Shown here piece after piece: positions 10,300 through 57,155 of a DNA stretch of 64,000 nt. Numbering within the stretch: the first letter of the stretch is position 1; the number at the start of each line of letters is the position of its first letter. The stretch is from an uncultured Bacteroidales bacterium. GTDB taxonomy: Bacteria; Bacteroidota; Bacteroidia; Bacteroidales; UBA7960. A program made the position numbers and the translations under genes. The notes under the pieces were generated by a model, which was not told the origin of the DNA, did not search any database, and was given only the letters and a program-made list of their open reading frames with translations. Where the stretch lies: positions 41,937 through 105,936 of the forward strand of contig CAYGDW010000002.1 of the NCBI GenBank assembly GCA_964348755.1, read 5' to 3'.

Positions 10300-13200
10300 A
10301 TGGCTTTCAGAAAAGAATCCAACGTAAAAAGCAACTTTTCCAGAATCACCATCAGCCTTGCCTCTCCTGAGTCAGTGCTGGAGCGTTCGCATGGAGAAGT
10401 GCTGAAGCCGGAAACCATTAACTACCGTACCTATAAACCCGAACGCGACGGTTTGTTCTGCGAAAGGATTTTTGGCCCGGTAAAAGACTGGGAGTGCCAT
10501 TGCGGAAAATACAAACGCATTCGATACAAAGGAATCGTTTGCGACCGCTGCGGTGTGGAAGTGACCGAAAAAAAGGTTCGTCGCGAAAGAATGGGCCACA
10601 TAAAACTGGTGGTGCCCGTGGCACATATCTGGTTTTTCCGTTCTTTGCCCAACAAAATTGGCTACCTTATCGGACTGCCATCCAAAAAACTCGATCAGAT
10701 AATTTACTATGAAAGGTATGTGGTCATAAACCCGGGTATTAAGTCAGGTGAAGTTAACTACCTCGATTTTCTTTCAGAAGAAGAATATTTTAATATTCTG
10801 GAAACACTTCCTCGCGAAAATCTTTTGCTCGAAGACACCGATCCCAACAAGTTTATTGCTCGTATGGGGGCCGAAGCGCTCAAGGATATACTGAATAGAC
10901 TAAACCTTGACCAACTCTCTTACGACCTTCGCCATAAGGCAAATACTGAAACTTCGCAGCAGCGCAAAGCCGATGCACTGAAAAGGCTGCAGGTTGTTGA
11001 AGCATTTCGCGAATCACAAAAATCCATTGAAAACAAACCAGCATGGATGATTATTGACGTGGTTCCCGTAATTCCGCCCGAGCTGCGTCCGCTAGTTCCA
11101 TTAGATGGCGGCCGCTTTGCAACCAGCGACCTCAACGACCTCTACCGAAGGGTAATAATTCGCAATAACAGACTCAAGCGATTAATCGAGATAAAGGCTC
11201 CTGATGTTATCCTTCGCAACGAAAAAAGAATGCTTCAGGAATCTGTTGACTCGCTCTTCGACAACTCGCGCAAAACCAATGCCGTCAAAACTGAATCAAA
11301 CCGCCCGCTTAAGTCCCTTAGCGACAGCTTAAAAGGTAAGCAAGGCCGCTTCCGCCAGAATCTATTGGGTAAAAGGGTTGACTACTCGGCCCGTTCGGTT
11401 ATTGTGGTTGGACCCGAGCTAAAACTGCACGAGTGTGGCTTGCCCAAAGAAATGGCCTCCGAGCTATTTAAGCCATTTATTATTCGCAAAATGCTCGAAC
11501 GCGGAATTGTTAAAACCGTTAAATCGGCCAAAAAAATCGTTGACCGTAAGGATCCTGTAGTTTGGGATATCCTTGAAAACGTTTTGAAAGGCCACCCGGT
11601 TTTGCTAAACCGCGCTCCAACCCTGCACCGGCTCGGTATTCAGGCATTCCAGCCCAAACTCATTGAGGGCAAGGCCATTCAACTACACCCACTTGTGTGT
11701 ACCGCCTTCAATGCTGACTTCGATGGCGACCAAATGGCAGTTCACGTGCCTCTTGGAAACGCAGCAATACTCGAAGCTCAATTGCTTATGCTGGCCTCGC
11801 ATAATATTCTAAACCCGGCAAACGGTGCGCCCATTGCGGTGCCCTCGCAAGATATGGTACTTGGCCTTTATTATATGACCAAGGCTCGCAAAAGTATTCC
11901 GCAAAATCCGGTTAAAGGCGAAGGCCTTACATTTTATGGTCCCGAAGAAGTGATTATTGCACACAACGAAGGCGCTGCCGATTTGCATGCAATAATTAAA
12001 GCCAGGGTGCCTGTTAAAGAAAATGGCCACATTGTTGAAAAACTTATTGAAACCACCGTCGGGCGGGTACTTTTCAACCAGGTTATTCCCAAAGAATATG
12101 GGTACATAAACCAGGTGCTTACAAAAAAGGCTTTGCGCGATATTATTGGCAGCATCATGAAGGTGACTGGCATTTCGCGTACTTCGCTTTTTTTGGATGA
12201 TATTAAAGACCTGGGCTTTAACATGGCATTTAAAGGAGGCTTGTCGTTCAACCTGGGCGATATTCTCGTGCCTGACGAAAAACAAATCCTTATAGACCAG
12301 GCCAACCAGCAGGTTGATGAGGTTCGTGCAAATTATAGCATGGGCTTTATTACCAACAACGAGCGTTACAACCAGATTATTGATATCTGGACGCATACCA
12401 ACGCCAAACTTACAAAGGTGCTTATCGAAAAGACCACCGCCGACAACCAGGGCTTTAACCCGGTTTACATGATGCTCGACTCAGGCGCAAGGGGCTCAAA
12501 AGAGCAGATTCGCCAACTTTCGGGAATGAGAGGCCTAATGGCAAAGCCGCAAAAATCGGGCGCAAAAGGTGGCGAAATTATTGAAAATCCAATTCTTTCG
12601 AACTTCAAGGAAGGCTTATCGGTTCTCGAGTACTTTATTTCAACCCACGGTGCCCGCAAAGGTCTGGCCGATACCGCCCTTAAAACGGCTGACGCTGGCT
12701 ATCTTACCCGCCGACTGGTCGATGTTTCGCAAGATGTAATTGTGAATGAAGCCGATTGCGGAACCCTTCGTGGCCTTACCGCCACAGCCCTCAAAAACAA
12801 CGAAGAAACTGTTGAAACGCTGTATGATCGAATTCTTGGACGCACAACCCTTCACGATATTTATCACCCAACAACAGGCGAAATAATCGTAAAAGCTGGT
12901 GAAGAGCTAACAGAAGAAATTGCACAGATTATTGAGCATTCGCCCATTGAAGCTGTTGAAATCAGATCGGTGCTTACCTGCGAATCGAAGCAGGGCGTTT
13001 GCGCCAAATGCTACGGCCGCAACCTTGCAACCGGGCGAATGGTACAAAAAGGCGAAGCAATTGGGGTAATCGCTGCCCAGTCAATCGGCGAACCCGGAAC
13101 ACAGCTTACCCTCCGTACATTCCACGTTGGTGGTGTAGCTGCTGGCCTTGCAACCGCATCAAAAATTAATGCCAAATACGGTGGCCTGCTCGAAATAGAC

Positions 13201-15539: not shown

Positions 15540-18476
15540 TCAGCTCCTTGGGTCGGGTTTCATAGGCATTTTGGCCATCTTCTCAACGGTGAGCGATTGG
15601 AAGCCGAACTCTTCTGCTATGGTACCCAGCAGCAGGTATATACCGCTTCCGCGGAATGGCCAGACTTTGGCTGCCTCAGGAAAGTGCACCGTATCAAAGA
15701 AATTGCCCTTCACATCCAAAAAGCAGCCAAAGTACATCATTTCGCGCTTTACCGTACGCACGTATTTGATGGTAACCAGCCAGCCCACCATACGCACCTT
15801 TTGCCTCACGTGCTTCAGCATATCAGAGGCCATTAGCTCTCCGCGAAATCCGCTTTTGGCCAGGTCAAAGGGGCTCATTGACACGGTAAAGCCCAACAAC
15901 TCCATCTCATCGTAAGCATCCTGCACGGGGTCGGTCTCGGGCTCAGGAAAGCAGAAGGACTTCTCCTGAGCGGCAAAGAGCTGGGGGCCTGCCTCGGTTT
16001 TTTTGCCGGCAAGCAGGTGTGCCTTCCACATGAGCTGGCTTTTGGCTATGCCCGTAAAACGAAACGCATTGACGCGAATAAGTAGTATGAGCTGCTCAAG
16101 CCCGGCACCGCTGCGGCGAGCAAAGTCTTCAAGGCTTAGGTAAGACCCCTCTGATTCGCGCCCGGCCGTGATGTGCTGTGCCAGCTTGTACTCCAGGTTC
16201 TGTATGTGCACAAGACCAATGTAAATATCATTTTCGTAAATGGTAGTGGTGTAGTTGCTGTGGTTTACGCAGGGCAGCTCAATGTTGGCACCGTAGCGCC
16301 GGGCTTCATTAAAATAGACCGGACTTTGGTAAAAGCCGCCAAAGTTATTTATTACGGCAGTCATAAACTCCCGCGGGAAGTAGGCTTTCAGATACAAGCT
16401 CTGGTAGCTCTCTACGGCAAAGGAAGCCGAGTGTGCCTTAGAGAATGAATAGCCGGCAAAGGACTCAATCTGTCGCCAAACTTCACGTATAAGGCTTTCG
16501 GGGTAACCCCTGGCCTTGCACCCATCGAAGAAGCGATTTACCACACGCTGCATCTCTTTTTTGGAGCGGTATTTGCCGCTCATGGCCCGCCGAAGCACGT
16601 CGGCATCGGCCAGATCGAGCCCGGCAAAGTGGTGGCATACCTTTATTACATCTTCCTGATAAACCATTACACCATAGGTTTCCTTCAACTGCTGCTCCAT
16701 GACCGGGTGCAAGTATTGGAAGCCTTTGGGATTGTGAAAGCGCTGTATGTACTCGCGCATCATGCCCGAGCGGGCCACTCCGGGGCGTATGATTGAGCTG
16801 GCCGCCACCAGGCTTATGTAGTTGTCGCAACGCAGCTTCTTGAGCAGCCCACGCATGGCGGGGCTTTCCACATAGAAGCAGCCCGTGGTCTCGCCCGAGC
16901 GAAGCAGGGCCTTTACCTTCTCATCTTTCTTAAACTTTTCAATCTGGTGTACATCCACGTTTATACCATGGTTTTGCCATACAATCTGTGCGCATTCGTT
17001 TATGTGGCCAATGCCACGCTGACTCAGAATGTCTATCTTCTCGAAAGCCAGATCTTCGGCCGTGTACATGTCCCACTGCACCGTGGGCAGGCCCTTGGGT
17101 GGCATATCGAGGGCCGAGTAGCAATTGATAGGCTGCTCAGAAATGAGCACGCCCCCGGCATGAATGCTGCGCATATTTGGGAAGTCGGCCAGCTGCCCGG
17201 CTATTTTGAAAATGCGGGTGCCTACGGCGTCGGGCTCGCGGCGGGCCTCATGGTCCGACACCAGCACGTCTATCTCGGACTTGGGCAGACCCAGCACCTT
17301 GCCCAACTCGCGTATCATGCTGCGGTCGCGAAAGGTGCTGATTGTACCCAGCAGGGCGGTATGCCCGTTGCCATAGCGCTTAAAGATGTAGTCAAGAACC
17401 TGGTCGCGCTCTTTCCACGAGTAGTCAATATCGAAGTCGGGAGGAGTGCTTCGCTTGGGGTTGATGAAACGCTCGAAGTAAAGGTCGAGCTCTATGGGGT
17501 CTACGTCGGTTATGCGAAGGCAGTAGGCAACTATGCTGTTGGCGCCGCTGCCGCGCCCCACGTGGTAAAAACCGCGCGACATGGAGTAGCGAATTATATC
17601 CCAGGTAATGAGAAAGTAGGATGAGAAGCCCAGCTTGTCAATTACCTCCAGTTCGTGCTGTACCCGTCGCAGAGCTTCTTTGTTGCGCCTGCCGTAGCGA
17701 TAATCCAGGCCATCCATGGCCAGCTTGGAGAGTAAGGCACGGTCGTCGGCCGGGTGGCCTGTAAAGGTCTTTTTGTTTTTGGGTGCGCGGAAGTCGAAGT
17801 CTATATGGCATTGCCCAATCAGATTTTCAGCATTGGCAACGAGATGCTGAAAACCCTGGTAGTGGCTGCGTATTTCGGAAGGCCAGGGGAAGACTTCGCC
17901 GGGATGGGCGGTGTGTTTGCCGGTGAGGCGGCTCAGCACTATGTTGTGGTCAATGGCACGCAGGTGGCCGTGCAGCTCAAACTCCTTTTCGGAAATGAAG
18001 GTAACGGGATGCAGGGCCACGAGTTTGGCAGGGTGGTGTCGTAGGGGAGAGGTTGAGAGGCGCGTAAGGTCCCAGGGGCGTATTCCAATGTATTCGTGCT
18101 CGGCGGGAATCGCCCCGGTGCCACCTTCCCCGAAAGGGTAAATAACAAAAGTGTGCTCGCACACCGGAAAACGCTCTGGCAGGGTCGTATGGCTAATGTT
18201 GTGCTGGCTCAAAAAGGCGTTGATGCGGCGAAAACCTTCGGGGTTTCGTGCCAGCACAATGTACAGCAGGCGGTCGCCCTTGCGAAACTCCATGCCTGCC
18301 ACCGATGCAATGCCCTGCTCGCGGCATAACTTTACAAATTCGGGCATGGCCGTGGCATTGTTGATGTCGGTGAGTGCCAGGCGCCCGATGCCCAGCTCAG
18401 AGGCCCGCTTTACCAGGTCTTCAGGGCTTATTGTGCCGTAGCGCAGGCTGTAATATGTGTGGCAGTTGAGGTACAT
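15540..18476 (-). CDS. dnaE2: error-prone DNA polymerase, DnaE2-type Pol III alpha homolog
   Basis: 978 aa. N-terminal PHP domain (MYLNCHTYYSLRYGTISPEDLV...LALTDINN) and the Pol III alpha palm/fingers region (FERFINPKRSTPPDFDIDY, SIIRPG). It is shorter than replicative DnaE and is paired with a Y-family polymerase. Confidence 0.85.
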   Translation of the reverse strand: MYLNCHTYYSLRYGTISPEDLVKRASELGIGRLALTDINNATAMPEFVKLCREQGIASVAGMEFRKGDRLLYIVLARNPEGFRRINAFLSQHNISHTTLPERFPVCEHTFVIYPFGEGGTGAIPAEHEYIGIRPWDLTRLSTSPLRHHPAKLVALHPVTFISEKEFELHGHLRAIDHNIVLSRLTGKHTAHPGEVFPWPSEIRSHYQGFQHLVANAENLIGQCHIDFDFRAPKNKKTFTGHPADDRALLSKLAMDGLDYRYGRRNKEALRRVQHELEVIDKLGFSSYFLITWDIIRYSMSRGFYHVGRGSGANSIVAYCLRITDVDPIELDLYFERFINPKRSTPPDFDIDYSWKERDQVLDYIFKRYGNGHTALLGTISTFRDRSMIRELGKVLGLPKSEIDVLVSDHEARREPDAVGTRIFKIAGQLADFPNMRSIHAGGVLISEQPINCYSALDMPPKGLPTVQWDMYTAEDLAFEKIDILSQRGIGHINECAQIVWQNHGINVDVHQIEKFKKDEKVKALLRSGETTGCFYVESPAMRGLLKKLRCDNYISLVAASSIIRPGVARSGMMREYIQRFHNPKGFQYLHPVMEQQLKETYGVMVYQEDVIKVCHHFAGLDLADADVLRRAMSGKYRSKKEMQRVVNRFFDGCKARGYPESLIREVWRQIESFAGYSFSKAHSASFAVESYQSLYLKAYFPREFMTAVINNFGGFYQSPVYFNEARRYGANIELPCVNHSNYTTTIYENDIYIGLVHIQNLEYKLAQHITAGRESEGSYLSLEDFARRSGAGLEQLILLIRVNAFRFTGIAKSQLMWKAHLLAGKKTEAGPQLFAAQEKSFCFPEPETDPVQDAYDEMELLGFTVSMSPFDLAKSGFRGELMASDMLKHVRQKVRMVGWLVTIKYVRTVKREMMYFGCFLDVKGNFFDTVHFPEAAKVWPFRGSGIYLLLGTIAEEFGFQSLTVEKMAKMPMKPDPRS

Positions 18477-18706
18477 TTTAACGGATTACACGGATTTATG
18501 ATTGATGATTTATGAATGATGATTGAGAAAAAATGGTCAACGTTATTCAAGCGTTGACACAGCCTTGAACCTTAACCGGGCGAAGCAAGCTTATGAACAA
18601 AGTGAACCTACCGCAAGGAGCTCAGCGAAGCGAAAAAACCTGAAACCCTGCCTACCCTCCACAGGCGGGTAAACCGGTAGGCAGGCTTGAACCCCAAACC
18701 TGAAAC

Positions 18707-19864
18707 TTATCCCGGTGTCATGGCTACACCACGGTGCAGGGCGTTTTCGCCATGCTTGCGGCGCATTCGGTCTATGGCCTGATAGAGGCTGATGAGCTCG
18801 GGTGTTTCTTCAAACATATTGAGTTGCTGCACACCGTGTACCAGGCGGCTGAATTGTATGCCCACCAGGCGTATGAGCATGCGGCGGGTGTATAACCGAC
18901 GAAACAGCTCCTTGCACACGGGTATAAGCACGTGGTCGAACGAAGTGTAAGGTAGTGTTTGTTGCAGGGTGTGTGTGTCGAAGTTGGCATAGCGTATCTT
19001 TATGGTAACGCAGCCGGTAAGCTGCTGCTTCTTACGCAGACGATATGCTACCTTCTCGCACATACGCACCAGCAAATCGTTGATGGCGGCAATGTCGATG
19101 GTGTCGGTTTCGAAGGTGGTTTCGGTGCCTATTGATTTGCGCTCGCTCCAGTTCTGCACAGGACTGTTGTCGATGCCGTTAGCTCGCCGCCATATCTCGC
19201 GGCCATTCTTGCCCATCATGTTTTCCATTACTTCGGGCGGTATGCGGCTCAGGGTGCCTATGGTGGCAATACCCATGGTGCGCAAGGTATAGTAGGTTTT
19301 TGAGCCAATCATAGGTATTTTGCGTATCGACAGCGGGTCGAGAAAGGGCCGCAGCATGGGCTGCTGTATCTGTATCTGCCCGTTAGGCTTGGCTTCGCCC
19401 GTGGCAATCTTAGACACGGTCTTATTCATAGAAAGACCCATGGAGATGGGCAGCCCTGTTTCTTTTATGATGTATTGCCGCAGTTCCGAAGCCCATTTGT
19501 AGCAGCCAAAGAAGCGATCCATACCCGTAATGTCGAGGTAGTGCTCGTCGATAGAAGCCTTTTCGAACATGGGGGCCCGTTCGGCAATAATTTGTGTTAC
19601 CATGTTGGAGTACTTGCTGTAGCTTTGCAGGTCGCCGCGAATGAACACGGCATCGGCGCAGAGGTTGCGCGCCAACTTCATGGGCATGGCCGAATGCACC
19701 CCAAACTGCCGCGCTTCGTAGCTGCAGCCCGCCACAACGCCCCGGTCGCCCATACCACCAATAATCACAGGCTTGCCAACGAGGCTGCAGTTGTGCAGAC
19801 GCTCTACCGACACAAAGAAGGTGTCCTGGTCAAGGTGTACTATGGTGCGGTTTGACGAATCCAT
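18707..19864 (-). CDS. dinB: Y-family DNA polymerase IV (DinB-like), catalytic residues intact
   Basis: HLDQDTFFVSVE and SIDEHYLDITG keep the Asp/Asp/Glu catalytic residues (unlike ImuB). GLSMNKTVSKIA is also present. Confidence 0.85.
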   Translation of the reverse strand: MDSSNRTIVHLDQDTFFVSVERLHNCSLVGKPVIIGGMGDRGVVAGCSYEARQFGVHSAMPMKLARNLCADAVFIRGDLQSYSKYSNMVTQIIAERAPMFEKASIDEHYLDITGMDRFFGCYKWASELRQYIIKETGLPISMGLSMNKTVSKIATGEAKPNGQIQIQQPMLRPFLDPLSIRKIPMIGSKTYYTLRTMGIATIGTLSRIPPEVMENMMGKNGREIWRRANGIDNSPVQNWSERKSIGTETTFETDTIDIAAINDLLVRMCEKVAYRLRKKQQLTGCVTIKIRYANFDTHTLQQTLPYTSFDHVLIPVCKELFRRLYTRRMLIRLVGIQFSRLVHGVQQLNMFEETPELISLYQAIDRMRRKHGENALHRGVAMTPG

Positions 19865-19993
19865 AAATAATTTTTGCTCAGAGGTTTAGCGTTTCAGAAA
19901 ATGTCTTAACTTTGATTAGAAAACAATCAAAAACGTGGTTATAATTTAATCAAAAATTGAATTGTGGGCCTTGTTGAAGATTATTTTTTGTCG

Positions 19994-20240
19994 GGCAGGG
20001 CTAAAGCCCTGAGTGGTATGTTGAAGTGCTTGCCCCCGGCTTAAAAGCCGGGGTTACTGAGGGGTGCCGTAAGCGGTACTTCAGTTGCGAAACAGAATTT
20101 ATTAACCCCAGACTTTAGTCTGGGGGATTGGATAATAGGCTATCAAATGAGGGCTTTAGCCCTGCCAAAATATTAACCCCAAACTTTAGCCTGTGGGATG
20201 AAACAATGAGATTAATATCGGGGCTTTAGCCCTGCCAAAA
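19994..20240 (+). repeat. 247-bp REP-cluster module, copy A
   Basis: Direct repeat of 20673-20919 at a 679-nt offset. I counted about 16-17 mismatches by eye and no indels. It contains the hairpins cagggctaaagccctg, ccccggcttaaaagccgggg, ccccagactttagtctgggg, agggctttagccct and ggggctttagccc. Confidence 0.9.
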
Positions 20241-20251
20241 CATTCAAAGTC

Positions 20252-20683
20252 ATGCCGCACGTTCGTATTCTGATCCATGCTGTCTGGGGAGTGAAAAATC
20301 ACCGTCCTTTACTTAAAAAGGACAAAAAAGAAATTCTTTTTGCGCACATTCAGGAGAATGCTCAGCAGAAGGGGCTCTTTATTCTGGAAATTGGCGGTTG
20401 GGATGATCATGTTCATTGCCTGTTAAGTCTGAATGCTGATATGTCTTTATCAAAAGTTATTCAATTGGTAAAAGGAGAGTCTGCCTTTTGGGCCAACCAG
20501 GAAAAACTATTCTCCGGGAAGTTTGAGTGGGCGAATGAATATTTTGGTGTATCCGTTAGTCCATCAAAGGTCCAGGAAGTACGGGGTTATATAAAAAAAC
20601 AGGAAGAGCATCATCGGAAAAAGACTTTTGAAGGGGAGTATCAGGAATTCCTGAAGGCTGTAGGCATAGAAAGGCAGGGCTAA
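20252..20683 (+). mobile_element. HUH/Y1 transposase, IS200-like / REP-associated tyrosine transposase (RAYT)-like
   Basis: 143 aa. HUH motif DDHVHCLL (H53, H55) and a catalytic-Tyr motif RGYIKKQEEHH (Y113). It is flanked on both sides by REP-like hairpin clusters rather than by distinct IS ends. Its GC content is clearly lower than its neighbours. Confidence 0.8.
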
Positions 20684-20919
20684 AGCCCCGAAGGATATGT
20701 TGAAGTGCTTGCCCCCGGCTTAAAAGCCGGGGTTACTGAGGATTGCAGTATGCGGTACTTCAGTTGCGAAACAGAATTTATTAACCCCAGACTTTAGTCT
20801 GGGGGATGGGGTAATAGGCTATCAAATGAGGGCTTTAGCCTTGCCAAAATATTAACCCCAGGCTTTAGCCTGTGGGACGAAACAATGAGATTAATATCGG
20901 GGCTTTAGCCCTGCCAAAA
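20673..20919 (+). repeat. 247-bp REP-cluster module, copy B
   Basis: See copy A. The first 11 nt supply the last three codons and the stop of the RAYT-like gene. The last nt lies 9 nt before the LexA-like ATG. Confidence 0.9.
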
Positions 20920-20928
20920 AAGAATACC

Positions 20929-21774
20929 ATGAGTTACTTTGCATCGAACATTAAGCTTTTGCGCAAGCGGCGGGGCCGCACCCAAGACGATGTGGCCTTT
21001 TTGCTCGACATGAAGCGCCCCACCCTGAGCGGCTACGAGAACGGGGTGGCCCAGCCAGGGCTGGAATCCCTGGTGGCATTTTCGAAGTATTACAACGTAT
21101 CAATCGATACCCTGATAAAGGTGGACCTGGGTCAGCTGGCCGAGAGCCAGCTCAGGCAACTGGAGCGGGGCTACGATGTGTTCGTTTCGGGTAGCAAGCT
21201 GCGCGTGCTGGCCACTACTGTTAATAGCGACAATGAGGAGAATATCGAGATGGTGTCGGAAAAGGCCAAGGCCGGCTACCGCGCAGGCTTCGCAGACCCG
21301 GAGTTCATCAAGGTGCTGCCCACCTTCCAGATGCCTTTTTTGTCGAAGCAGAAAAAATACCGCAGTTTCCAGATTTCGGGCGACAGCATGCTGCCCATTA
21401 CTGAAGGCTCATGGGTTACCTGCGAGTTTGTGCAGAACTGGAACCTGATACAAAACCGTCATGCCTATGTGATCCATACCCTTGACGACGGGGTGGTATT
21501 CAAGGTGGTGGAAAACCTGATCAGGACAGAGGGCAAGCTGCGGCTTTATTCGCTCAACCCAATCTACGAGCCTTACGAGGTGCATGTGAATGATATTCGC
21601 GAGGTGTGGAAGTTCGTCAACTTCATTAGCAGCCAGATACCCGAGGCCAACACGCCTGTGGAGCATCTCTCAAACCAGTTTATCCAGCTTAAGAAAGAGG
21701 TGGAAACCATTAAGAGCAAACTGAAAACGAAAAAACCCCAGGGAAAAACGGGCAATCTTTTCGGGAATGATTAG
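20929..21774 (+). CDS. HTH (XRE/CI-type) + S24 peptidase repressor, non-canonical LexA-like
   Basis: N-terminal HTH (NIKLLRKRRGRTQDDVAFLLDMKRPTLSGYENG). S24 Ser-Lys dyad (SGDSMLP ... VVFKV). A possible AG cleavage region (KAKAGY). ATG at 20929 is used because the ORF-track start at 20872 lies inside repeat B. Confidence 0.8.
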   Translation: MSYFASNIKLLRKRRGRTQDDVAFLLDMKRPTLSGYENGVAQPGLESLVAFSKYYNVSIDTLIKVDLGQLAESQLRQLERGYDVFVSGSKLRVLATTVNSDNEENIEMVSEKAKAGYRAGFADPEFIKVLPTFQMPFLSKQKKYRSFQISGDSMLPITEGSWVTCEFVQNWNLIQNRHAYVIHTLDDGVVFKVVENLIRTEGKLRLYSLNPIYEPYEVHVNDIREVWKFVNFISSQIPEANTPVEHLSNQFIQLKKEVETIKSKLKTKKPQGKTGNLFGND

Positions 21775-27975: not shown

Positions 27976-28040
27976 ATTTACTAGTTTTGAAAATTAGTTT
28001 TACGATTGCAGTTTCCTTGCAAATTACGAACATTTTAATA

Positions 28041-28205
28041 AAAAAATCACTATTGTCCGATAAAGTAAATAAGGGTAGAATTTTATGCATGAGATTCCTC
28101 ACCAGGTTCGGAATGACAGTCAGTTAGTTTAATTGCCATAGCCATTGAAAACCCTGCCATTTCGAGCGGAGCGAGGAATCTCGTAATTTTTAGCGGCCAG
28201 TAGTG
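28041..28205 (+). repeat. composite dispersed repeat, copy X
   Basis: Matches the reverse complement of 56955-57155. The first 82-nt block has about 5 mismatches, and the second 74-nt block has about 14. It contains two inverted ~29-nt motifs (28091-28119 and 28154-28182). Confidence 0.9.
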
Positions 28206-28420
28206 TAAAAAAACATGACGTAAAAATGGTTTTTTTCGAACCAATCTATGGGTGCTTGTATTGCGAAATTTTTATCTCATTTTCGATTTAGGGGGTTGTA
28301 GATCGCATTACTTTTTTCTGCTTCCAATAAAAAATGAATCAGTTTGAAGTGATTCAAATCAATGCAAAACCTGTCTTCGCCTTTTTGCGTAACTTCGCAG
28401 ATCAAACCCTATAGCTGACA

Positions 28421-56913: not shown

Positions 56914-56954
56914 TTTAAGAATATTGAGTCTGATTTCTAATCTTCTAAATTTCG

Positions 56955-57155
56955 CACTACTCTCCGACAAAAATTTCGGGATTTCTCTCTCCGCTCGAAA
57001 TGACAGGGCTTTCAATGATTTTGGCAATAGAGAGGGGGGTAGGTGGTACCCCCCTTAATAAAAAGCTAACTGACTGTCATTCCGAACGTAGTGAGGAATC
57101 TCATGCATAAAAATCTACCCTTTTTTACTTTATCAGACAATAGTGATAATTTTTC
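56955..57155 (-). repeat. composite dispersed repeat, copy Y (inverted relative to copy X)
   Basis: Reverse complement aligns with 28041-28205. It carries an extra ~30 nt that include the perfect hairpin ggggggta-ggtgg-tacccccc (57034-57054). Confidence 0.9.

Follow-up and report, generated by a model that had tools for sequence, protein, structure and literature searches.

Is a transposase-like gene that sits among hairpin repeats a mobile element, or is it a resident of the chromosome that is kept together with repeats of its own? The question is raised by a 64,000-nt stretch of DNA from an uncultured Bacteroidales bacterium (GenBank assembly GCA_964348755.1, contig CAYGDW010000002.1, positions 41,937 to 105,936; hereafter the window), in which a gene for a HUH transposase with a single catalytic tyrosine (Y1) lies between two near-identical 247-nt hairpin modules, in the control region of an SOS (DNA-damage) polymerase operon and next to the gene for a LexA-like SOS regulator. 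The best-known case of a single host-gene transposase kept with short non-autonomous repeats is that of the repetitive extragenic palindromes (REPs), their inverted doublets (REPINs) and the REP-associated tyrosine transposases (RAYTs), which has been worked out almost entirely in Proteobacteria. A first reading of the window, made from its letters (the sequence-only reading), had recognised this architecture rather than that of an insertion sequence (IS) of the IS200/IS605 type. The follow-up presented here largely supports the REP/RAYT-like reading. The system looks like a Bacteroidota counterpart of the proteobacterial REP/RAYT systems, and we consider it fairly probable that the gene encodes a single-copy, vertically kept endonuclease for single-stranded DNA (TnpAY1 subclass 1.2), which is no longer IS-like and is nested among repeats that are probably its own substrates.

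The Y1 gene and its two hairpin modules

The generic unit of the modules is a dyad of about 70 nt, built from two different hairpins: T2 (CCCCnnnC-TTTA-GnnnGGGG), about 22 nt of spacer, and T1 (GGGC-TTTA-GCCC). A prime marks the inverted orientation. Each module holds, in this order, an inverted dyad, an extra hairpin and two direct dyads. In the inverted dyad T1' reads GGCAGGGC-TAAA-GCCCTGA and T2' reads CCCCGGC-TTAAAA-GCCGGGG; in the direct dyad T2 is CCCCAGAC-TTTA-GTCTGGGG, followed after a gap of about 25 nt by T1, (A/G)GGGC-TTTA-GCCCTGCC. The repeat system is laid out as follows:

19994-20240, forward strand: module 1, a 247-nt hairpin array upstream of the Y1 gene
19994-20012 and 20034-20053: module 1, inverted dyad (T1' and T2')
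20056-20085: module 1, extra hairpin
20106-20125 and 20150-20166: module 1, first direct dyad (T2 and T1)
20177-20197 and 20218-20236: module 1, second direct dyad (a degenerate T2, and T1)
20252-20683, forward strand: Y1/HUH gene, 143 aa, TnpAY1 subclass 1.2; its stop codon, TAA (20681-20683), doubles as the loop of the module 2 T1'
20673-20919, forward strand: module 2, which repeats module 1 in direct orientation (233/247 identical)
20673-20691 and 20713-20732: module 2, inverted dyad (T1' and T2')
20735-20764: module 2, extra hairpin
20785-20804 and 20829-20845: module 2, first direct dyad (T2, and T1 with one stem mutation)
20856-20876 and 20897-20915: module 2, second direct dyad (T2 and T1)

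As the sequence-only reading had described, the modules form a direct repeat without a single indel, 247 nt each and 679 nt from start to start; the identity, put at about 93% by eye, amounts to 94%. They are the only long direct repeats in the window. The gene itself is bracketed by two inverted 19-mers (20218-20236 and 20673-20691) that are 100% complementary over their 19 nt. Within module 1 the inverted T1 19-mers (19994-20012 and 20218-20236, 95% complementary) pair as a closing stem in the fold predicted for single-stranded DNA (-53.8 kcal/mol, z = -6.05), and the hairpins pointed out earlier are recovered in the same fold.

These structures are confined to the modules. The motif GGGCTTTAGCCC occurs six times exactly in the window and eight times with at most one mismatch (0.4 expected; eight were reached in 0 of 100 shuffles), and every exact copy falls within the two modules. 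The one-mismatch matches at 12450 and 56056 were rejected as true copies: they lie in ordinary sequence and are attributed to chance because they have no hairpin context. Perfect GC-stem hairpins with a TTTA or TAAA loop are absent from the 64-kb window outside the two modules. The modules were likewise rejected as a known RNA family, as Rfam returned only sub-threshold chance matches at E <= 1 over 19800-21000; at gathering thresholds the whole window yields five tRNAs and nothing else.

An artefact of assembly or duplication, biologically meaningless, might be suspected for any such repeat, and the short assemblies L002 and L003 do break within the modules, while L164 contains a run of N there. 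The same arrangement is nevertheless present in three further independent assemblies (L001-L003), so that it is seen in four assemblies of the source strain, and again in three related species; moreover, the two modules have diverged from each other and the reading frames are intact. We regard an artefact as hardly credible.

The gene product matches Pfam Y1_Tnp with 83 bits and carries the expected catalytic motifs, DHVH (His53 and His55) and Tyr113 within RGYIKKQEEHH, as proposed in the sequence-only reading. Tyr113 aligns with the residue that is mutated in the ISDra2 Y132F structure entry. The score against the NCBIfam IS200/IS605 model (59.6 bits) is above its cut-off of 55, whereas that against the NCBIfam RAYT model (REP_Tyr_transpos, NF047646; 25.5 bits) is far below the cut-off of 80. 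A PDB sequence search finds the TnpA proteins of ISDra2 and IS608 (E ~1e-6), and Escherichia coli TnpAREP (4ER8) is absent among the matches. An AlphaFold model (pLDDT 87) has hairpin-bound ISDra2 and IS608 TnpA as its top fold matches (E ~1e-9), with 4ER8 at rank 30 (E 2e-5). A canonical RAYT was therefore rejected on the NCBIfam score, on the Y motif (Y---Q--HH, not Y---NP) and on the ranking by PDB sequence and fold. Thus, of the claim that this is RAYT and not IS200/IS605 architecture, the layout with its inverted complementary 19-mers stands, but the protein is nearer to IS200/IS605 TnpA by both sequence and fold.

The signature Y---Q--HH is found in 83 of 91 homologues, among which H53, Q117, H120 and H121 are invariant and H55 and Y113 are at least 90% conserved. 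DH[IV]H together with Y---Q--HH defines TnpAY1 subclass 1.2 as described by Quentin et al. (PMC6006769), with proteins near 148 aa in length and, on average, 1.7 copies in each genome: an IS200-like, low-copy, non-IS group from Bacteroidetes and Cyanobacteria, for which the table entry for associated secondary structures is 'no'. By its motifs DHVH and YIKKQEEHH the protein belongs to this subclass. In the alignment of homologues and the AlphaFold model the catalytic residues and the hairpin-binding TnpA fold are kept; the predicted activity would be cutting and joining of single-stranded DNA beside hairpins. A Bacteroidota example embedded in an SOS mutagenesis locus had been called unusual. 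Y1 genes at low copy and structured repeats in Bacteroidetes had already been published (PMC6006769).

The composition of the gene was misjudged earlier. At 42.1% GC, not about 35%, and with 0.42 GC at third codon positions (GC3), the Y1 gene is close to the genome mean (45.2% GC for the window). The compositional outlier is the SOS cassette around it (15540-21774), whose genes for DnaE2, a Y-family polymerase and the LexA-like regulator have 52-55% GC and a GC3 of 0.67-0.71.

Conserved geometry and dispersal of the hairpins

The exact protein sequence is found only at the SOS locus, on four contigs. Proteins that are 86-88% identical occupy the same position, between the Y-family polymerase and the LexA-like gene, in L004, L005 and L164 (the latter being Bacteroidales metagenome-assembled genome, MAG, 15dZY3.bin.68), and a branch at 54-56% identity (P0023, P0015) resides at another fixed locus that is kept over many samples and MAGs. 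The nearest genomes are Bacteroidales MAGs, and the 64-kb window contains one Y1 gene. The flanks are symmetric and inverted, unlike the differing left and right ends of an IS, whose hairpins share one strand. The Y1 gene is low-copy, with one locus found per lineage and no IS-like duplicates, and an active IS200 was rejected on this single-locus conservation.

To what extent are the hairpins tied to the gene? We compared 16 Y1 loci, whose proteins are 49-88% identical to that of the window and whose neighbourhoods are mostly unrelated. Hairpins of type T1 or T2 flank the gene in 15/16 loci. Downstream, a T1 with TAAA loop overlaps or abuts the stop codon in 11/16, the TAA usually being in the loop itself, and a T2 follows about 30 nt beyond it on the outer side. 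Upstream, 9/16 have a T1 with TTTA loop at a distance of 26-36 nt from the ATG, and a T2 at about -70 precedes it; T1 is present on both sides of the gene in nine of the 16 loci. The protein ends reflect this arrangement: many homologues terminate in QG, HG or EG, matching an xAG-GGC-TAA layout, and in P0010-type proteins the frame continues through the flipped loop, so that QGFSP is encoded by CAGGGCTTTAGCCC. As frame, catalytic residues and hairpin layout are kept over 50-88% protein identity, long-term selection is suggested; and a T1 fixed within a few nucleotides of start and stop, with the stop codon in its loop, is not expected from insertion-site preference alone. The arrays themselves change fast: in strains with an identical P0023 protein (L006, L008, L009, L014) the module 3' of the Y1 gene measures 224, 367 or 377 nt, the differences being whole units.

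To further analyze the hairpins we scanned metagenomes with the query AACCCCAGNCTTNAGNCTGGGG, which gave at least 120 T2 loci; the figures that follow refer to the matches listed. In 94% of the 168 distinct units a Watson-Crick pair occupies the free position of the T2 stem (C-G in 73, G-C in 46, A-T in 36), and G-T is seen in only four. The rarity of the wobble pair suggests a constraint on both DNA strands, not on one RNA. In the flank profiles the T2 stem reaches out to TAACCCC...GGGGTTA, and T1 is followed by a conserved TG(A). A T1 of the same orientation follows T2 in 67 units, at 20-29 nt in 63 of these. Between lineages the T2 stems can be wholly different and still pair (CCCCGACC/GGTCGGGG, CTCCGTGC/GCACGGAG and CCCCATGC/GCATGGGG). 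By these patterns of sequence covariation, the hairpins are under selection as structures. With respect to genes, 88% of 76 T2 units fall outside open frames of 120 codons or more, against 88% of background positions inside them, and a subclass-1.2 gene is adjacent at 7/120 T2 loci.

A scan of the genome collection with the 18-mer GGGCTTTAGCCCTGCCAA (again, among the matches listed) places the dyads in related genomes: the matches in Bacteroidales MAGs are T2-T1 dyads. In Bacteroidales UBA7960 they occur on at least six contigs with unrelated flanks, and a module lies directly upstream of a LexA-like gene. Alignment of the UBA7960 dyads sets their right boundary after GCCCTGCC; neither a clear target duplication nor a cleavage tetranucleotide was seen in it. 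MAG 15dZY3.bin.68, which shares the SOS cassette of the window (Y1 87%, LexA-like protein 93% and polymerase 95% identical), contains, on a different contig (L252:2026-2194), a solo module of 170 nt in the order T1'-T2'-T2-T1. It lies between convergent open reading frames with no Y1 gene within 8 kb, and folds like the window module (z = -6.6). Dispersal of the hairpin units is thus established in related genomes and in metagenomes, with abundant extragenic copies in the latter. The sequence-only reading had expected many REPs beside a single-copy Y1 gene. One locus per lineage and solo units in related genomes agree with this, though the remaining 63 kb of the window contain no extra copy. 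It had also counted modules without a Y1 gene nearby against itself; such modules are what was found in relatives, and they are a prediction of a REPIN-like system, not a refutation of it.

It might be argued that the dyads are host elements (bidirectional terminators, mRNA stabilisers or protein-binding sites) and that Y1 elements merely insert beside them, as some IS target REPs. The strongly extragenic location of the dyads would fit, as would the solo module between convergent genes, a typical terminator position, and the lack of a Y1 gene on the examined stretch at 113/120 of the listed dyad loci. A hairpin found at the insertion point in the relative L263 (see below) could be a pre-existing target, and the T1 core is identical to that of GTAG-tagged REPs common in other phyla. 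However, insertion beside host elements does not account for a T1 whose position relative to start and stop is fixed within a few nucleotides in distant members, with the stop codon in its loop; no T-runs follow these hairpins; and the rare G-T pairs (4/168 listed) suggest a constraint at the level of both DNA strands and not of a single RNA. We consider this alternative improbable and retain the reading in which the dyads belong to the Y1 gene.

Of the listed matches to GGGCTTTAGCCCTGCCAA that lie outside Bacteroidota, most are GTAG-tagged REPs of the classic kind, GTAGCGCAGGGCTTTAGCCCTGC...CTAC. These share the T1 core and belong to a different system. As an observation in its own right, GTAG REPs and REPIN-like doublets of many phyla (L144-L262) have GGGCTTTAGCCCTGCCAA as their core, with hosts such as Pseudomonadota CSMAG_150, Vicinamibacterales, Desulfobacteraceae, the PVC group and Dehalococcoidia; they share the stem-loop of T1 but not its context. 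Three IMG/VR phage contigs (L042, L086, L060) carry two or three GTAG-tagged REPs (catGTAGCGCAGGGCTTTAGCCCTGcc), spaced by about 2 kb and each located just 5' of a GGAGG-like ribosome-binding site. These phage REPs, listed by a 14-mer scan of the viral collection, were rejected as part of the Y1-dyad system, to which they are unrelated. Further repeats were noted in Bacteroidales. In SO_2017_LW2 bin 112 (L160, L169, L179, L200, L258) T1 is flanked on both sides by more than 120 nt of near-identical sequence on at least five contigs, a longer repeated element of unknown kind, and L262 of the same bin has a five-dyad array. In UBA7960 (L237, L145, L220) a further repeated hairpin, GGGCGGAATTTCAAATTCCGCCC, often adjoins the T2-T1 dyads.

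The SOS locus and the history of the insertion

The context of the repeat system consists of the following features:

15540-19864, reverse strand: divergent error-prone polymerase operon
18707-19864, reverse strand: Y-family polymerase (Pfam IMS, IMS_C)
15540-18476, reverse strand: DnaE2-type Pol III alpha (Pfam PHP, DNA_pol3_alpha)
19914-19928 and 19937-19951, no strand assigned: candidate LexA-like operators GATTAGAAAACAATC and GGTTATAATTTAATC, GATTA-N5-TAATC dyads upstream of module 1
20929-21774, forward strand: LexA-like SOS regulator, 281 aa (HTH_3 and Peptidase_S24), outside the repeat system

A scan of the window for GATTA-N5-TAATC gave the two sites and, apart from these, two chance-level matches only. 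The pair is kept beside the polymerase gene in L004, L005, L263, L266 and L268. The operator motif of the non-canonical LexA of Bacteroidetes is CTAA-N5-TTAG (PMC8565304), with which GATTA-N5-TAATC shares the form of a dyad around N5. The pair may therefore represent the operators of the LexA-like regulator, a candidate function that is suggested by motif and position.

Relatives define the insertion, as the sequence-only reading had proposed that they might. L263, L266 and L268 (LexA-like proteins 90%, 80% and 69% identical) are syntenic and lack the Y1 gene, with intergenic regions of 154-252 nt. Insertion took place about 40 nt past the second palindrome. Sites in the outgroups L266 and L268 are clean and empty; that of L263 contains a degenerate T1-like hairpin (GGCAGGAC-TTAA-GTCC, with a compensated stem change) exactly at the left module boundary. 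A late arrival had been suggested for the gene. Insertion into the SOS control region is confirmed by these Y1-less relatives, but it is old: it is common to a clade of carriers whose LexA-like proteins are only about 77% identical. Recent horizontal arrival was rejected, as the Y1 identity among carriers (86-88%) is inside the range of the neighbouring genes (75-97%), which is most simply read as vertical descent with one loss. L005, which by its neighbouring genes is more distant than L263, has two tandem copies of the Y1 gene with a 723-nt period. Since the modules are direct repeats, unequal recombination gives zero, one or two gene copies, and the relatives show all three. Taken together, the simplest history that the sequences suggest would be one old insertion, a loss in the L263 lineage and a duplication in L005.

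The same history leaves room for an old, immobile IS of the IS200 type. The hairpins would then be its ends, the 247-nt repeats the outcome of a 679-nt tandem duplication and the scattered dyads relics comparable to miniature inverted-repeat transposable elements, in a relationship that is no longer ongoing. The NCBIfam IS200 score above cut-off and the fold nearest to IS608 and ISDra2 TnpA are in line with such an origin. The family sits at different loci by lineage, so it has moved or been transferred at some time; presence and absence vary between close relatives, and the gene-plus-module unit of L005 is duplicated in tandem. Its flanking hairpins, however, are inverted and symmetric and not of the same-strand left and right type, multiple identical copies occur in no lineage (save the one tandem pair), and frame, catalytic residues and hairpin layout are kept across proteins of 50-88% identity, a sign of long-term selection. 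Subclass 1.2 has, in addition, been published as low-copy and without IS properties (PMC6006769). On balance an old IS seems unlikely, and we continue with the gene as a stationary nuclease among its repeats.

LexA-like translation starts at an ATG 9 nt past module 2, and the insertion separates it by about 1 kb from the operators, with no second operator nearer. The Y1 gene and the LexA-like gene therefore probably share an SOS-controlled transcript. A promoter and terminator scan gave nothing above shuffles, the sigma-70 consensus being unsuited to Bacteroidota, and the hairpins are without T-runs after them.

How might such a system work? Its basic repeat is the dyad of about 70 nt with the extended T2 (TAACCCCnnnC-TTTA-GnnnGGGGTTA), about 22 nt, and T1 (GGGC-TTTA-GCCC, then TG). 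Opposed dyads build modules that are closed by inverted T1 arms, much like a REPIN, and in the fullest family layout (T2-T1, ATG ... stop inside T1', T2') the gene lies between inverted dyads. By analogy with IS608 and ISDra2 TnpA and with E. coli TnpAREP, the protein may bind T1 and/or T2 on single-stranded DNA, then cut and rejoin beside the hairpins. This would seed or rearrange dyads and modules at other intergenic sites while the gene stays put as a single copy. In the lineage of the window the gene-plus-module unit entered the interval that separates the SOS operators from the LexA-like gene, and operator-controlled transcription probably crosses the Y1 gene first, in which case its expression would be damage-inducible. 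Protein class, architecture, conservation, dispersal in relatives and insertion are directly established; catalysis on the hairpins, mobilisation and SOS control we infer.

A number of observations weigh against this picture. The link between protein and hairpins is a positional association. One of the 16 loci (L022) has no flanking hairpin at all and three others have the downstream set only, and the GTAG tag of RAYT-recognised REPs is absent from the Bacteroidales dyads. The remaining 63 kb of the window contain no T1 or T2 copy, and neither do the flanks of L004 and L005, so the repeat population in the source genome may be very small or absent. Errors in MAG binning could affect the assignment of L252 to the same genome. 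Ordinary recombination or slippage can explain the changes in tandem copy number with no Y1 activity, and co-transcription of the Y1 and LexA-like genes is a conjecture.

A wider proposal goes beyond this, and we put it forward tentatively, as rather doubtful. The subclass-1.2 proteins might serve as nucleases in a REPIN-like system of a second type, akin to RAYTs yet separate from them, widespread in Bacteroidota and with the dyad as its unit. In the clade of the window the nuclease gene would be wired into an SOS circuit, so that damage switches on hairpin-directed cutting of single-stranded DNA and repeat mobilisation alongside the error-prone polymerases; damage-linked mobilisation is a possibility that the sequence-only reading had raised.

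Two further features of the window were noted. A second non-coding repeat of about 170 nt is present at 28040-28210 (forward) and 56950-57153 (reverse), inverted, 29 kb apart and 83-91% identical. One copy has a 33-nt insert with a GGGGGGTA...TACCCCCC palindrome; the repeat shows long-range pairing GAGATTCCTC...GAGGAATCTC and has no Rfam match. Within the tRNA cluster Thr-Tyr-Gly-Thr, the 3' end of tRNA-Tyr (1407-1489) is perfectly duplicated over 44 nt (1473-1516 and 1537-1580), which looks like the scar of a tRNA-integrating element.

Comparison with known systems

The closest relative by definition is TnpAY1 subclass 1.2 itself. DHVH fits DH[IV]H, YIKKQEEHH fits Y---Q--HH, and the length of 143 aa compares with about 148 aa. 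Also shared are a conserved C-terminal extension, a low copy number, the lack of IS behaviour and a host among the Bacteroidetes. The window differs from the published description ('no' structures) in that the gene has a conserved two-hairpin dyad on its flanks, with further copies scattered over related genomes. Bertels et al. describe a RAYT-like IS200 Group 3 that has no duplicates, is found off plasmids and has flanking 16-mers that occur 21 times (PMC5581495), a group that may be equivalent to subclass 1.2. In a literature search no REP or REPIN elements were found described for subclass 1.2 or in Bacteroidales.

IS200/IS605 TnpA proteins (IS608, ISDra2, IS200) provide the best matches in sequence (E ~1e-6) and fold (~1e-9), with the HUH motif, a single catalytic tyrosine and about 140 aa in common. 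They recognise subterminal hairpins on single-stranded DNA. Unlike these elements, the window gene is not multicopy, has neither distinct same-strand left and right ends nor a tnpB partner, stays at a fixed chromosomal position and has a different Y motif.

REP/REPIN-RAYT systems (E. coli TnpAREP, 4ER8; RAYT groups 2 and 3 of Pseudomonas and enterobacteria) resemble the window in their organisation: a single-copy Y1 gene with inverted palindromic repeats at its flanks, inverted doublets that each fold into a long hairpin, dispersed solo copies outside genes (here in relatives), and a vertically inherited gene position. Differences concern the details. The window protein is without Y---NP and scores 25.5 against a cut-off of 80, and its repeats lack the GTAG (or CGTC) foot and have two different hairpins as their unit. 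In addition, the stop codon lies in a hairpin loop and the repeat density in the source genome appears low.

Summarizing, the architecture and its breadth are well supported. The system appears to work like REP/RAYT yet fails the RAYT sequence definition and has no GTAG tag. To our knowledge the cellular role of the RAYT nuclease is still unknown. Subclass 1.2 has been known only as an IS200-like non-IS group, and a conserved partner would provide it with a testable substrate, for which the T2-T1 dyad, with T1 fixed at gene start and stop, is the candidate. Such a pairing would bear on whether Y1 transposases have been domesticated once or repeatedly, and it would extend REPIN-type elements to the Bacteroidales, including gut and wastewater lineages.

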